A stretch of 64,000 nucleotides of DNA from Acidimicrobiia bacterium (GTDB lineage: Bacteria; Actinomycetota; Acidimicrobiia; Acidimicrobiales; JANYDT01): NCBI GenBank assembly GCA_031429095.1, contig JANOYY010000047.1:4571-68570 (forward strand), written 5' to 3'. The notes below the pieces were generated by a model. That model had not been told where the DNA came from and did not search any database. It saw only the letters and a list, made by a program, of their open reading frames with translations. Position 1 is the stretch's first letter, and each line of letters begins with the position of its first letter. The position numbers and the translations under genes are program-made. Shown here piece by piece: positions 41,138 to 44,208 of this stretch.

Positions 41138-42433
41138 TTATCCGGCCGCCCACAGAGTCGTCTCAGGCAAGCCCCGCATAATACGGTGAGCGACCTCGCT
41201 GCCTTGAAGAAACGAGTGATCCTGATTCGAAACTTCATATCGCCACCCGCCGAATCGGCCGCGCGAAAACACATGTTCATGCTCAAGCCGGGTATGTACG
41301 TCTCGGAGTACGGCATCTCGCTGGAGAGTCGGGATCGGATAGCCGTGGCGAAGGTAGTGCGTCCAGGTAGTGGCAAGGACGGATGGATCGCAGAGACCCC
41401 GTTCGCCGAGCGCCCTCAGAAGACCCTCTGCCGGTTGCGGTACGAATCCGTCAGCTCCGCCTGACTCGCAAAGCAGCGACCAGTGCCCCGGGGGCGCATT
41501 ATGTGGAGAGTATCTGCTGAGAACCGTAAGTCGGTAGCAGTCAAGCTCAGGCTCGGCGCAATACAGCCAGTCCAAGTCGGAGAGTACGGGTGGCGGGGAG
41601 CCCCGAAATCCAAATCCACAAAGACCTACCGAGGTGTTCTCGATCGCACCCCCCAGTGATAGGGAGGCCAACGACGGCGTCCGATCGATCAGGGTCGTTA
41701 GGGGGATCGTAGAAATCAAGACATCGTAGGAACAAGCTGACCCGTCAGACATCTTGACTGTTCGAAGACGAGTGTCCAATTCTTCGAACGCAACCCCATT
41801 TGATATGCGTGCTGAAGGAAGTCGACTTGCGAGTGCAGACCAGGGTGCGCCGGTTCCCCCTCGCGCAGGATAGCGGAATCGGCGGTTCGGTCCCCACGAT
41901 TCGTCCGATCCGTCGTTGGACTTTGCAACACGGTCCCCAACCCACACACTCGACATCGCGGCTGGCTCGATGTTCCAAAGTTTGCGATTGTAAGGCAGAA
42001 GGAACTGTTCGATTACCCGGGCGCTGAACTGGCGGCGCATCCAGCCTTCAAACGACGCCGGGTCTGCGTGCGGTTGGTCGCCCTCGGTGGCGGCCTGATC
42101 TGGCAACTGATCCTCATTGTGCTGCACCGGATACGCAACAGTCTGTCCTCCCACAAGAGCGGCGGCGCGCCGGTCGTGCCAGATCCAGGATTCGGCGCCG
42201 AGAAGGTCATCCATGAGGAGGTTGTACGCCCGACTTCGGGAGAACCCAACGTGGCCCCCGAGGTCCCATGTAAAGCCGTCTTGGACGATCGATTGTGAAA
42301 GGCCGCCGCACTGCGCGCCACTTTCGAAGAGTCGCCAGTCGGCGCCGTAGGCCTCAAATGTCATCGCGGCTGCGAGCCCAGTCGGACCACCGCCGACAAT
42401 GACAACGATCGGTGATTTCGAGTCGTCGGTCAA
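41138..42433 (-). CDS. FAD-dependent enzyme homologous to eukaryote-type UDP-galactopyranose mutase
   Basis: [14 protein letters not shown] dinucleotide fold, [29 protein letters not shown], and C-terminal [26 protein letters not shown]. This matches the fungal/kinetoplastid UGM pattern as I recall it (...PGGLAS...GFLYDVGGHVIFS... and [24 protein letters not shown]). The TTG start overlaps the stop of the preceding small ORF (TTGA). Confidence 0.75.
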   Translation of the reverse strand: [431 protein letters not shown]

Positions 42434-42729
42434 AGACTCGGGCTTCTCGGCATCCGGGCGCCGAGATCGGCCATGTCACGGCGCAACTGCAAGAGCTCCC
42501 GCATGACGTCATCGAGGTTCGGTCCGAGATCGAAAGCTGCGCAGGGATTCGGTGGCGGCGGTGGCACAGGTGCGCCTCCGGGAGTGCCTCCGTCGTTAGT
42601 AAGCACTGCGCCGAATCGCTGCAGGATTTCGATCAGCGCTCGGGGGTTTTTCGCGATATCGATCACATCGCCGTACTTCTTCCGCACTGCTTCGACGATT
42701 TCGTTGTCACGATCATCAAGTGCACTCAT
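42430..42729 (-). CDS. 99-aa hypothetical protein with central polyproline segment
   Basis: MSALDDRDNEIVEAVRKKYGDVIDIAKNPRALIEILQRFGAVLTNDGGTPGGAPVPPPPPNPCAAFDLGPNLDDVMRELLQLRRDMADLGARMPRSPSL. ATG 42729 is preceded by GGGGA. Third codon positions are GC-biased. It is wedged with overlaps between the P4H and the UGM-like gene. The longest ORF start (42861) would overlap the P4H by 146 nt. Confidence 0.5.
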   Translation of the reverse strand: MSALDDRDNEIVEAVRKKYGDVIDIAKNPRALIEILQRFGAVLTNDGGTPGGAPVPPPPPNPCAAFDLGPNLDDVMRELLQLRRDMADLGARMPRSPSL

Positions 42730-43309
42730 GTTCGTCCCCATCTCTATGGTTTTGGGTGTGGCTTTGAAGAATCGGGTGCGAGGACCAGGAGACCAGCGAG
42801 ACCCTCTGTCCTCGGAGTACTGGGTGGACCCGGTGAATTCCAAGTCGACTGCCGATGCCATCGGGCCATCGGTTCACCCACGACACAACCGTACCGGCGA
42901 CCGGTTGGACGACCAAATCTGCATCCGGAAACTCCAGCTCGCCACCGGACTCGGGACCTCGCAGAACGACCATGATGGAACGAATCCGTCCCAGAACTCC
43001 ATAAGGATCATCGTGGTGTGCATCGAACCTCGCGCCGACACCGTACCGGAGCGCCTGCCAACCCGCCAGCGATCTTGCAGGGATTGAGGTTGCGGTGAGA
43101 ACAGCCTCCTCAACCTCGCGCACCGCACATGTCAACTGTGCCGTAAACGTGTCGGGAAAAGCTGTTTCGCTTGTGCGAGCAGGCGAGACAGAGACACCGT
43201 TGGCGTCGTCGATCACCGTGCTCCTGCGCCAGTAGGCAAATTCCAGCTCGTTCAGAACTCGTGTGCAGAGATCGGTCGTGATCAGGCCGGGCCACACCTC
43301 GATGCTCAT
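42716..43309 (-). CDS. 2OG-Fe(II) oxygenase, prolyl 4-hydroxylase (P4Hc) type
   Basis: ALRYGVGARFDAHHDD (HxD), GGELEFPD and HRVHPVLRGQRVSLVSW (distal His plus basic 2OG ligand). The start overlaps the GT stop (ATGA at 43306-43309). Confidence 0.75.
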   Translation of the reverse strand: MSIEVWPGLITTDLCTRVLNELEFAYWRRSTVIDDANGVSVSPARTSETAFPDTFTAQLTCAVREVEEAVLTATSIPARSLAGWQALRYGVGARFDAHHDDPYGVLGRIRSIMVVLRGPESGGELEFPDADLVVQPVAGTVVSWVNRWPDGIGSRLGIHRVHPVLRGQRVSLVSWSSHPILQSHTQNHRDGDEHECT

Positions 43310-44208
43310 GGTGCTCTCGTCGTGACGAGGTGGGTCATCGAATTGCGCTCGACGAACTCCACCGCCGAGCGCGAAATGGCTGAACGATCACTGCCTGCGT
43401 CCAGAATGTAAGACCGGACCAGGTTCAGCGATGCCCTGTGCTGATCCGACCAGTTTGAGGACCGCGTCCAATGCGGTTGGCGTTGGGTGCGATCGTAGGC
43501 ATGCCAGCCAATCGGGATATGGGGATGAAACAAGTCGAAGCCCAACGAGATCAAGAGCAGCGACAACAGAACCTCGTCGCCGAAGAAGTAGATATCGTCG
43601 AGAACGGAGAGTTCCTCGATCGCGTTGAGAGTTCCCGCCCCGAACAGAAGGTGCAGCGAAACGAACTCGGCCGGGACGGGGCAGATGAGAGACGACGCAA
43701 ACGGAATTGGCCAGCCGGCGAGGCGCGTGAGGATCCCATCCTCGCGCTCGTGCGGGATCAACCGAAGTGCTCGCGGGGTAAAGTTCCAGAGCGGTACGCC
43801 CGGACGATACGGCGACAAGTACGACGTCAGGACAACCTTTTCGGGCCGTCGGGTCTGCAGGCCGGCCGAGCGATGCATGGCGACCAGCTGTTCGTCCCAA
43901 CCGGGAAGAAACCGATGGTGTGAGTCAAGCAACAACGTGAACTGTTCGTCGGTCCACCGAGCCCGCAGCTGTCGACGCGCCCAGTTCGGGCCCTCGCTCA
44001 GCCGAGCGTCGACTGCAACAACGTCCAGGTTCGGGAGCGAGAGGACATCGTTGTCGATCGTCTCGCCATCATCGTGCTGCCACAATACGGCCACTCGGAG
44101 ACGATGCGGTTTGGTCGCCATTGCGTAAAGACTTCGAATTGTCGGACACAGCTCCGTGTCTAAGAAGGAAGGTATCTGTACATAGATCTTGTCGTTCTCG
44201 TCGCTCAC
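43306..44208 (-). CDS. GT-A glycosyltransferase of the polypeptide-modifying 'GlcNAc' (Gnt1/GT60-like, PF11397-like) type
   Basis: The N-terminal IYVQIPSFLDTELCPTIRSLYAMATKPHRLRVAVLWQHD and the DxH motif LLLDSHHRFLPGWDEQL match my recollection of the Skp1-hydroxyproline GlcNAc-transferase family and the DSH of mucin-type ppGalNAc-Ts. It has a GTG start. The 5' end is rich in AT-ending codons. Confidence 0.65.
   Translation of the reverse strand: MSDENDKIYVQIPSFLDTELCPTIRSLYAMATKPHRLRVAVLWQHDDGETIDNDVLSLPNLDVVAVDARLSEGPNWARRQLRARWTDEQFTLLLDSHHRFLPGWDEQLVAMHRSAGLQTRRPEKVVLTSYLSPYRPGVPLWNFTPRALRLIPHEREDGILTRLAGWPIPFASSLICPVPAEFVSLHLLFGAGTLNAIEELSVLDDIYFFGDEVLLSLLLISLGFDLFHPHIPIGWHAYDRTQRQPHWTRSSNWSDQHRASLNLVRSYILDAGSDRSAISRSAVEFVERNSMTHLVTTRAP

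Follow-up and report, generated by a model that had tools for sequence, protein, structure and literature searches.

Sugars linked to hydroxyproline (Hyp) are regarded as a eukaryotic trait, found in plant and algal walls and on Skp1 in protists. Whether bacteria may also build such a linkage is the question raised by four overlapping genes in a 64,000-nucleotide stretch of the Acidimicrobiia bacterium assembly GCA_031429095.1 (contig JANOYY010000047.1; hereafter the window, in which position 1 is the first letter of the whole stretch). The genes encode a glycosyltransferase (GT), a prolyl 4-hydroxylase (P4H), a 99-aa small protein (SP) with a proline-rich loop and a UDP-galactopyranose mutase (UGM). 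A first-pass annotation, made from the letters alone, had read them as a candidate bacterial Hyp-O-glycosylation system. Its observation was confirmed and its interpretation supported in this study, with the two chemical steps, hydroxylation and glycosylation, and the nature of the sugar being what we infer. Judged from gene order, protein families and motif conservation, the cassette is a strong candidate for the first bacterial Hyp-glycosylation system.

Four overlapping genes encode a predicted cytoplasmic module

The four minus-strand open reading frames (ORFs) and their three overlaps were confirmed by direct reading of the sequence, and all the peptide strings quoted in the first-pass annotation were found in the translations. 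The features are as follows.

43306..44208, minus strand: GT gene, PF11397/GT60-type (300 aa, GTG start)
43306..43309, minus strand: ATGA stop/start overlap of the GT and P4H genes, from sequence inspection
42716..43309, minus strand: gene of the P4H-type 2-oxoglutarate (2OG)/Fe(II) oxygenase (197 aa)
42716..42729, minus strand: 14-nt overlap of the P4H and SP genes, with the SP ATG (42729) inside the 3' end of the P4H gene, whose TGA lies at 42716-42718
42430..42729, minus strand: SP gene, candidate acceptor (99 aa, ATG at 42729)
42544..42594, minus strand: codons of the SP loop motif D46-G-G-T-P-G-G-A-P-V-P-P-P-P-P-N-P62, the proposed hydroxylation/glycosylation region, from the family alignment
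42430..42433, minus strand: TTGA overlap of the SP stop (TGA) and the UGM start (TTG)
41138..42433, minus strand: UGM gene of the 'eukaryotic' type, proposed supplier of UDP-galactofuranose (431 aa, TTG start)

Because the junctions overlap (ATGA, 14 nt and TTGA), a single transcript with translational coupling is the natural reading. The longest ORF for SP is 143 aa. Since homologues start where the 99-aa form starts, and independent public gene calls agree (300, 197, 99 and 431 aa on four independent metagenome contigs with the same four genes in an operon), the 99-aa start is taken as correct. One public call of the flavoenzyme (P0393, 408 aa) starts at Met24 and would delete the FAD-binding GGGPTG (GxGxxG). 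The TTG start is right, because the alignment to solved UGMs begins at residue 7 and the 431-aa form keeps GxGxxG. As read from the sequence, none of the four proteins has a signal peptide or a hydrophobic or transmembrane segment, so the four-gene system is predicted to be cytoplasmic.

A Gnt1-like glycosyltransferase is coupled to a collagen/algal-type prolyl 4-hydroxylase

On account of an N-terminal block and a DSH motif, the GT had been associated with the Gnt1 family and with mucin-type polypeptide GalNAc-transferases. Indeed, it matched PF11397 ('GlcNAc', CAZy GT60-type) in Pfam with 134.4 bits against a cut-off of 21 (E = 8.6e-39), and PF11397 is present in 120 of 120 GT homologues among the matches listed. 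GT homologues with 40% identity or more carry no other labels than 'GlcNAc-transferase family protein' or 'hypothetical'. The LDSHHRF block, which holds the DxH motif (D95-S96-H97), and an HPH block are invariant in 25 homologues. An AlphaFold (AF2) model built from the 25-homologue alignment has a GT-A fold (pLDDT 93.8, pTM 0.92). In a Foldseek search of the PDB, its best 46 matches are polypeptide GalNAc-transferases (GT27; E ~5e-10, TM(query) 0.56-0.67), and GlfT2 of M. tuberculosis follows at rank 47 (E 6e-8). No GT relatives were found in 2.9 million viral contigs.

The neighbouring oxygenase matched PF13640 with 43 bits in Pfam, and its best solved relatives in a single-sequence search of the PDB are the peptidyl P4Hs 2jig, 3itq and 7zsc. 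With a profile of 20 cassette homologues (A7), the matches were 2jig (6e-27), which we take to be the Chlamydomonas P4H, 3itq and 5hv0 (3e-25), 7zsc (9e-25), 5c5t (2e-23) and P4H-TM (2e-16). They include collagen, algal, viral and Bacillus-type P4Hs, and the next family, PKHD/PiuC, reached just 6e-4. No PHD/EGLN-type chain appeared with this profile at E <= 1 save 6t8m at 0.94. The facial triad H98-x-D100...H159 is invariant among the homologues, and the 2OG-binding basic residue ten positions past the distal His is R169 in the window and Lys in at least 90% of the homologues. By family, the oxygenase is assigned to the collagen/algal-type P4Hs and not to the PHD-type. The P4Hc signature first noticed in this protein thus held up, with PF13640 and collagen/algal/viral P4H relatives at 6e-27 to 1e-23, but the enzyme is not of the PHD type found in the Skp1 pathway.

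Other PF11397 proteins were met outside the cassette. The proteins matched by the GT on plasmids belong to remote PF11397 subfamilies, share at most 33% identity with it and occur in different settings, such as a type VI secretion system (T6SS) cluster; they were set aside as uninformative on the cassette. One of them, on the Burkholderia ambifaria plasmid pBMC401 (L078, locus 4989-6341; 29% identity), lies inside the type VI secretion cluster with RHS, PAAR and VgrG genes as neighbours and may be an effector-related glycosyltransferase. In Burkholderiaceae metagenome-assembled genomes (MAGs; L073-L075, e.g. L075:6600-8621), two tandem PF11397 domains occur in one ORF (409 bits, 4 stretches), and neither a P4H nor a small protein was found near these double-PF11397 ORFs.

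GT, P4H and SP are inherited as a trio

In the first three look-ups (an uncultured relative, Microbacterium and Rhodococcus), the GT gene is followed by a gene for a PF13640 protein and then by a 90-100-aa ORF without a family. A scan with the GT alignment, with one genome per species, yielded 71 loci of 20 kb (numbered with L), in which local profile searches were run on six-frame ORFs. The complete trio of adjacent same-strand GT, P4H and SP genes was found in 56 of the 71 loci by profiles, and a motif search added four loci with a repeat-type SP, giving 60/71. Since 60 of 71 loci, each from a different species, share the trio, the arrangement is beyond chance, and we have little doubt that the three genes work as one functional unit. 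The conserved unit is the trio GT-P4H-SP and not the quartet. The first-pass annotation had named neighbourhood conservation of all four families as a check; this held for the trio, but UGM turned out to be accessory, present in ~15% of loci and drawn from three lineages.

Most of the incomplete loci sort into four groups. A contig end falls within the cassette in four (L026, L047, L048 and L074), and the P4H gene is frameshifted in L064. Three others (L017, L032 and L054) have no adjacent P4H or SP gene and encode a PF13640 protein elsewhere in the locus. Further loci without the trio carry distant GTs, such as the tandem double-PF11397 proteins of Burkholderiaceae described above.

The hosts of the trio span at least nine phyla, with Actinomycetota, Alpha-, Beta- and Gammaproteobacteria, Myxococcota, Bacteroidota, a cyanobacterium, Planctomycetota (a Pirellulaceae), Acidobacteriota and Gemmatimonadota represented. 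The cassette is present in cultured strains of Rhodococcus, Nocardia, Mycolicibacterium, Microbacterium, Arthrobacter, Xanthomonas, Rhizobium, Aquimarina and Spirosoma. Since the GT tree does not track taxonomy, the distribution fits a self-contained module that has spread horizontally. The cassette neighbours are heterogeneous: the 117 nearest neighbours hold 84 Pfam families, each seen at most three times. Clustering of flanking ORFs and Pfam searches of these 117 neighbours revealed no further conserved partner gene. In Rhodococcus sp. NPDC060086 (L005:479-16410), the cassette sits in a defence island, flanked by an MmeI-type restriction-modification enzyme with an AAA_15/21 ATPase on one side and the BREX genes PglY and PglZ on the other; this setting is not general, as neighbours elsewhere are heterogeneous.

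The conserved non-helical part of SP is a proline/glycine motif

SP itself has no Pfam, NCBIfam or PADLOC family and no signal peptide. A word-indexed search with the SP sequence alone returned only itself, and an alignment-based profile was required to recover the family, which comprises 169 proteins in a set of 5.8 billion sequences and 206 clusters at 50% identity among 1.84 billion representatives. None of the 169 proteins contains a Pfam domain or bears a functional name, and the named entries shown are 'hypothetical' or 'uncharacterized'. SP homologues lie directly 3' of the P4H gene in other phyla and are mutually homologous. Against the PDB, the SP profile found no significant solved relative and no Skp1 chain, but merely coiled-coil/ankyrin-like noise.

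The family pattern starts with two N-terminal helices (..IVxxVIKRYGxxIDLxxxPxxLIEIxRxF..), followed by a loop (PDGG-L-PP-GG-V-P-(P)n-PGP-T/S) and a C-terminal amphipathic helix. In the window, the loop reads NDGGTPGGAPVPPPPPNPC; P62 is invariant, and G48 and G52 are nearly invariant across the family (alignment A3). In the AlphaFold model of SP, helices span residues 4-19, 29-43 and 72-92, and a Pro/Gly stretch at 44-61 is of low confidence. These data place the conserved non-helical part of SP, a Pro/Gly motif, in a loop that is predicted to be disordered. The polyproline segment between helices that had drawn attention to this ORF is therefore present as a Pro/Gly loop, but its PPPPP run varies in length and the conserved signature is DGGxP(P)GGxP...PxP. 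When the window is read in all six frames, the loop motif turns up a single time.

Two public gene calls join SP to other parts. P0329 (320 aa) continues from a P4H domain into the C-terminal two thirds of SP, where a frameshift is possible, and P0297 (252 aa) holds a complete SP preceded by a HEAT-like N-terminal region. The SP profile also gave weak multi-stretch matches to poly-HAMP repeat proteins (P0344, P0375).

A variant clade multiplies the motif and keeps its prolines

Eleven loci (L041, L045, L046, L049-L051, L053, L055, L056, L058 and L059) form a variant clade. Their SPs are 200-330 aa long, with the same N-terminal domain where alignable, followed by 2-5 tandem copies of the motif (PPDGGxPEPGxPP) and a hydrophobic NPWILYWF C-terminus. 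In their P4H, a Cupin_8/JmjC domain (134.6 bits) follows at the C-terminus, and because of this fusion a second, different hydroxylation is likely in this clade. The genes of one example are located as follows.

L055, 12272-13138: small protein of the variant clade
L055, 13142-14866: P4H fusion of the variant clade

The variant loci cluster nearly exclusively in the GT tree, with L032, in which no SP was detected, nested inside; the GT, P4H and SP types thus change together. The 36 repeats from the 11 variant loci share an invariant P-D-G-G-x-P-E-P-G-x-P, in which x is P/T or V/T, and contain no invariant Ser, Thr or Tyr. Therefore, a conserved O-acceptor would arise in these repeats only via proline hydroxylation. 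Multiplication of the motif with its prolines kept and no other conserved hydroxyl is what would be expected of a Hyp acceptor array, and we regard this pattern as the strongest sequence argument for SP as the substrate and Hyp as the linkage residue. Two motif copies also occur in the otherwise ordinary SPs of L016 and L062.

Helix 2 and the loop of SP faintly resemble the ankyrin consensus IVEVLLKYGADVNAxDxxGGTP (PDB 6mol, a designed ankyrin). Asn in ankyrins is a substrate of the JmjC enzyme FIH. That this likeness occurs alongside a Cupin_8/JmjC domain on the variant P4H is probably a compositional coincidence.

Non-orthologous mutases have been recruited to the cassette

The flavoenzyme had been aligned by eye with fungal/kinetoplastid UGMs and not with classical bacterial Glf, and this assignment held up. 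In a phmmer search of the PDB, it matched 4dsg, presumably the T. cruzi UGM, at 1.5e-81 (residues 7-426) and 3ute at 1e-72. Protoporphyrinogen oxidase (1sez) reached just 2.4e-6, over the N-terminal 70 residues with the Rossmann motif. Neither a PF03275 match nor a Glf structure at E <= 0.01 was found for the window enzyme. Its GxGxxG, GGH-loop, YRxT and GYPxP (GYPIP) motifs are identical or nearly identical to those of 4dsg and 3ute and are kept in the homologue of L015; they presumably serve in FAD binding, as the GGH 'histidine loop' and in substrate binding by Arg, Tyr and Asn. The family assignments are thus supported, since each passed the Pfam, PDB or fold check that the first-pass annotation had named.

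Besides the window, 11 of the 71 loci (~15%) have a UGM or UGM-like gene beside the cassette, and the mutases belong to three unrelated or distant lineages. The eukaryote type is found in the window and in L015, a Myxococcota/Deltaproteobacteria MAG (41% identity, motifs conserved). Classical Glf is found in L016, L027, L045, L057 and L070 (PF03275 at 109-270 bits). A third flavoenzyme occurs in L012:6005-7327, L049:10849-12231, L050:3737-5131, L055 and L059:1699-3018, with a remnant in L053:10831-11187; all its significant matches in the PDB are UGMs (1e-14 to 1e-18), it shares 22-27% identity with the window UGM, and it is without the Arg of the RFRYP motif. The cassette-linked mutase gene mostly adjoins or overlaps the GT gene, on its upstream or its downstream side, and in the window it follows the SP gene.

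In the 20-kb loci, no strong UGM match is farther than 3.7 kb from the GT gene. UGM-bearing loci stand at no fewer than eight scattered positions in the GT tree, with UGM-less sisters. By a rough estimate, in which glf is present in perhaps a third of genomes, chance would place it within 3 kb of a given gene in ~0.03 of 71 genomes, and five classical Glf genes were observed. This repeated recruitment of non-orthologous mutases argues that UDP-galactofuranose is relevant to the cassette. Moreover, no second GT lies beside the cassette in the window, L027 or L057, which makes the PF11397 enzyme the simplest candidate user of this donor.

The eukaryote-type mutase is not exotic in itself. Its type was correctly recognized at first, but its relatives (211 metagenome matches) are common on bacterial-looking contigs without the cassette. 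The 80 loci examined from these 211 (L085-L164; 30-43% identity, on high-GC contigs of up to 1.2 Mb) contain no cassette, and the neighbours of the mutase there include MacB/FtsX, PilZ-GAF, PIG-L, Sir2 and GT2 proteins. This UGM class is thus neither specific to the cassette nor confined to eukaryotes, and its label describes the solved structures and not the distribution.

Proposed mechanism and alternative explanations

We propose that the operon encodes a self-contained cytoplasmic protein-modification module expressed from one transcript. The collagen/algal-type P4H would use O2, 2OG and Fe(II) to hydroxylate at least one proline in the exposed SP loop DGGTPGGAPVPPPPPNP, with the two N-terminal helices of SP probably serving as a docking element. 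The PF11397/GT60-type GT would then add a sugar from a UDP-sugar to the new hydroxyl. In the window and in ~15% of related loci, the co-transcribed UGM would supply UDP-galactofuranose, so that the glycan contains galactofuranose (Galf); its addition by this GT itself would be the simplest case, because the module has no other GT. The operon, the enzyme families and folds, the intact catalytic residues, the co-inheritance of the trio, the conservation and multiplication of the motif and the recruitment of UGM are observed. From these we infer hydroxylation of loop prolines, Hyp glycosylation, Galf in UGM-bearing loci and docking by helices 1-2.

These parts differ in strength. Taken as a whole, hydroxylation of the SP loop by the P4H followed by glycosylation of Hyp by the GT, with Galf in the glycan, is the account that we favour with some confidence. 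SP is rather likely to be the acceptor, given the motif pattern, and the evidence leans slightly towards Hyp as the linkage residue. The genomic association with mutases leaves the presence of Galf in the glycan evenly balanced, and its direct transfer to Hyp by this GT is doubtful.

Several points weigh against the proposed mechanism. The SP model has a low global confidence (pTM 0.29). Foldseek gives no sharp separation between protein-acting and glycan-acting GT-A enzymes, as GlfT2 at rank 47 illustrates for our model. To our knowledge, DxH enzymes of the GT27/GT60 type are retaining and use UDP-HexNAc donors solely, and a UDP-Galf donor would be unprecedented. About 85% of the cassettes have no adjacent UGM; these may either draw the donor from a Glf encoded elsewhere or use another sugar, for example UDP-GlcNAc as in characterised GT60 enzymes. 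Hosts in the Mycobacteriales (L005, L008, L011, L013, L014, L018, L019, L038 and L052) make a galactofuran and have Glf anyway. The third-lineage flavoenzyme, judged by its missing Arg, may act on a substrate other than UDP-Gal. In addition, most single-motif SPs carry T/S-S right after the invariant Pro (GPTS), with Cys in the window SP (NPC), so that direct linkage to Ser, Thr or Cys is possible for single-motif SPs.

This last point is the basis of a mucin-type explanation, in which the GT glycosylates Ser, Thr or Cys beside the proline-rich stretch and proline hydroxylation is a separate, structural event or tunes recognition. The nearest solved folds of the GT are Ser/Thr-directed GalNAc-transferases, and GT60 includes Thr-directed polypeptide GlcNAc-transferases (PMC8724618). 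However, the T/S position is variable (Cys, Lys, Asp, Ala or Gly) and absent in the xanthomonad group, no hydroxyl residue is invariant across the 36 variant-clade repeats, and the obligatorily co-inherited P4H would be left without explanation; we therefore consider mucin-type modification improbable. It is also unlikely, though somewhat less so, that SP is an adaptor, regulator or chaperone that just targets or controls the P4H and GT, whose substrate would be another protein, for instance a translation factor or a protein of the cell envelope. Conserved synteny speaks for a functional linkage and not for a substrate relationship, the C-terminal helix of SP is coiled-coil-like and could mediate protein interactions, and one bacterial P4H family acts on EF-Tu. 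Nevertheless, a motif multiplied to 2-5 copies with an invariant Pro looks like an acceptor array and not like an adaptor, the motif lies in a low-confidence loop, and no other conserved partner gene is found near the cassette.

The GT and UGM might instead build a Galf polysaccharide or glycolipid, with the oxygenase and SP unrelated or accessory. UGM normally serves the synthesis of cell-envelope glycans, the structural matches of the GT model include GlfT2, and relatives of the eukaryote-type UGM adjoin GT2 enzymes on other bacterial contigs. We hold this to be quite improbable, as no flippase, polymerase, lipid-carrier priming enzyme or extra GT is seen alongside the cassette, here or in other loci, the four proteins are without signal or transmembrane segments, and the GT is tied to P4H and SP (60/71) far more than to UGM (11/71). 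Similarly, a small gene beside tailoring enzymes, a patchy distribution with the look of horizontal transfer, and the Rhodococcus copy between an MmeI-type restriction enzyme and BREX genes could suggest a ribosomal natural-product (glycopeptide) pathway or an anti-phage/conflict module with SP as precursor or effector. But SP is conserved over its full length, with no hypervariable core and no split into leader and variable core, and no protease, exporter or immunity gene recurs among the 117 neighbours, which are not enriched in defence genes. PADLOC gave merely a generic 2OG-domain match, and the viral contigs hold zero copies. Such a role for the cassette is very improbable.

Genomic surroundings in the window

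The genes flanking the operon are unrelated to the four: DUF885, MFS transporter, SDR and P450 genes lie on one side, and genes for a weak HTH_67-like protein, a thioesterase, PhyH, DUF808 and a polysaccharide deacetylase on the other, with no further glycosyltransferase among them. The Rfam search of the window returned nothing, the promoter and terminator scans stayed at background level, and PADLOC gave no more than the 2OG-domain match mentioned above. A tandem repeat of ATGCACAGCGTCGTA (15 bp x 7.9 copies, 99% matches) at window positions 36779-36896 sits in the gap between the end of the P450 gene (36709) and the start of the SDR gene (36923).

Comparison with known systems and significance

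The closest parallel to the proposed Hyp-O-glycosylation of SP is the Skp1 pathway, in which Hyp-GlcNAc is made by a GT60 enzyme and PhyA and Gnt1 are fused in the oomycete Pythium (PMC8724618). As with PhyA followed by Gnt1 in Dictyostelium and Toxoplasma, a P4H and then a PF11397/GT60 enzyme would act in the cytoplasm on one dedicated protein, and the enzyme genes are physically linked in both cases, by fusion in Pythium and by overlap in the window. GT60 membership and the lack of signal peptides are observed here, and the GT is proposed to act after the hydroxylase. In contrast to the Skp1 pathway, the P4H is of the collagen/algal type and not of the PHD type, the acceptor would be a 99-aa SP without detectable similarity to Skp1, PgtA, AgtA, Glt1 and Gat1, which carry out the extension there, are missing, the enzyme pair is joined by a UGM and the host is bacterial.

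The Hyp-O-glycosylation of extensins and arabinogalactan proteins in plants and green algae is similar in other respects. The best solved relative of the P4H, 2jig, acts on proline-rich polyproline II (PPII) peptides, proline runs and repeated motifs are the targets, and furanose sugars are placed on Hyp. That system is secretory and uses GT95, GT31 and GT77 enzymes, Araf or Galp and an arabinose mutase, whereas the cassette is predicted to be cytoplasmic and has one PF11397 GT and a UGM. In T. cruzi, mucin glycans are initiated by GT60 enzymes and extended with Galf (PMC8724618). The same GT family is thus combined with the same UGM type, but in the Golgi, on Thr, with separate Galf-transferases and no prolyl hydroxylase.

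Among bacterial proteins, the P4H of Bacillus anthracis shares the soluble collagen-type fold and the triad (3itq and 5hv0, ~3e-25), although this and other bacterial P4Hs have no linked GT or dedicated small acceptor, and their physiological substrates are unclear or collagen-like. EarP and EF-P are likewise a case of dedicated glycosylation of a bacterial cytoplasmic protein: one GT serves one protein, the genes are adjacent, and the supply of nucleotide sugar is sometimes linked. They differ in the fold and family of the GT, in the Arg-N linkage (rhamnosylation), in the lack of hydroxylation and in an acceptor of known function. Hence, the families and the logic are known from Skp1 and extensins, and the novelty lies in the occurrence in bacteria, in a family of proposed dedicated acceptors and in the link to a furanose. 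We found no report of a prokaryotic Hyp-linked glycan, of such a bacterial cassette or of a bacterial PF11397 protein in the literature covered, which lacks most subscription journals, so that an earlier mention is possible.

As for the role of the modified SP, we can only speculate. By analogy with Skp1, its loop could be a conformational or interaction switch dependent on O2, 2OG and Fe; a metabolic or oxygen switch is suggested because the hydroxylation needs these three. All cassette hosts that can be named are aerobes, which fits an O2-dependent step. In its widest form, the proposal would describe a widespread, mobile bacterial system for cytoplasmic Hyp-O-glycosylation with its own acceptor, a GT that is a UDP-Galf-using Hyp galactofuranosyltransferase, a loop acting as metabolic or oxygen switch, and the module or its relatives as the prokaryotic source of Skp1-type enzymes; that all of this holds jointly is unlikely.

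The cassette is compact, with three or four genes, soluble and present in cultured strains, which makes its chemistry directly testable in E. coli. If the proposed modification is true, SP would define a new protein family, and the use of furanose donors by GT60 enzymes would be put to the test. It would also help to trace how the eukaryotic enzymes arose in evolution and offer a simple tool for site-specific Hyp-glycosylation.

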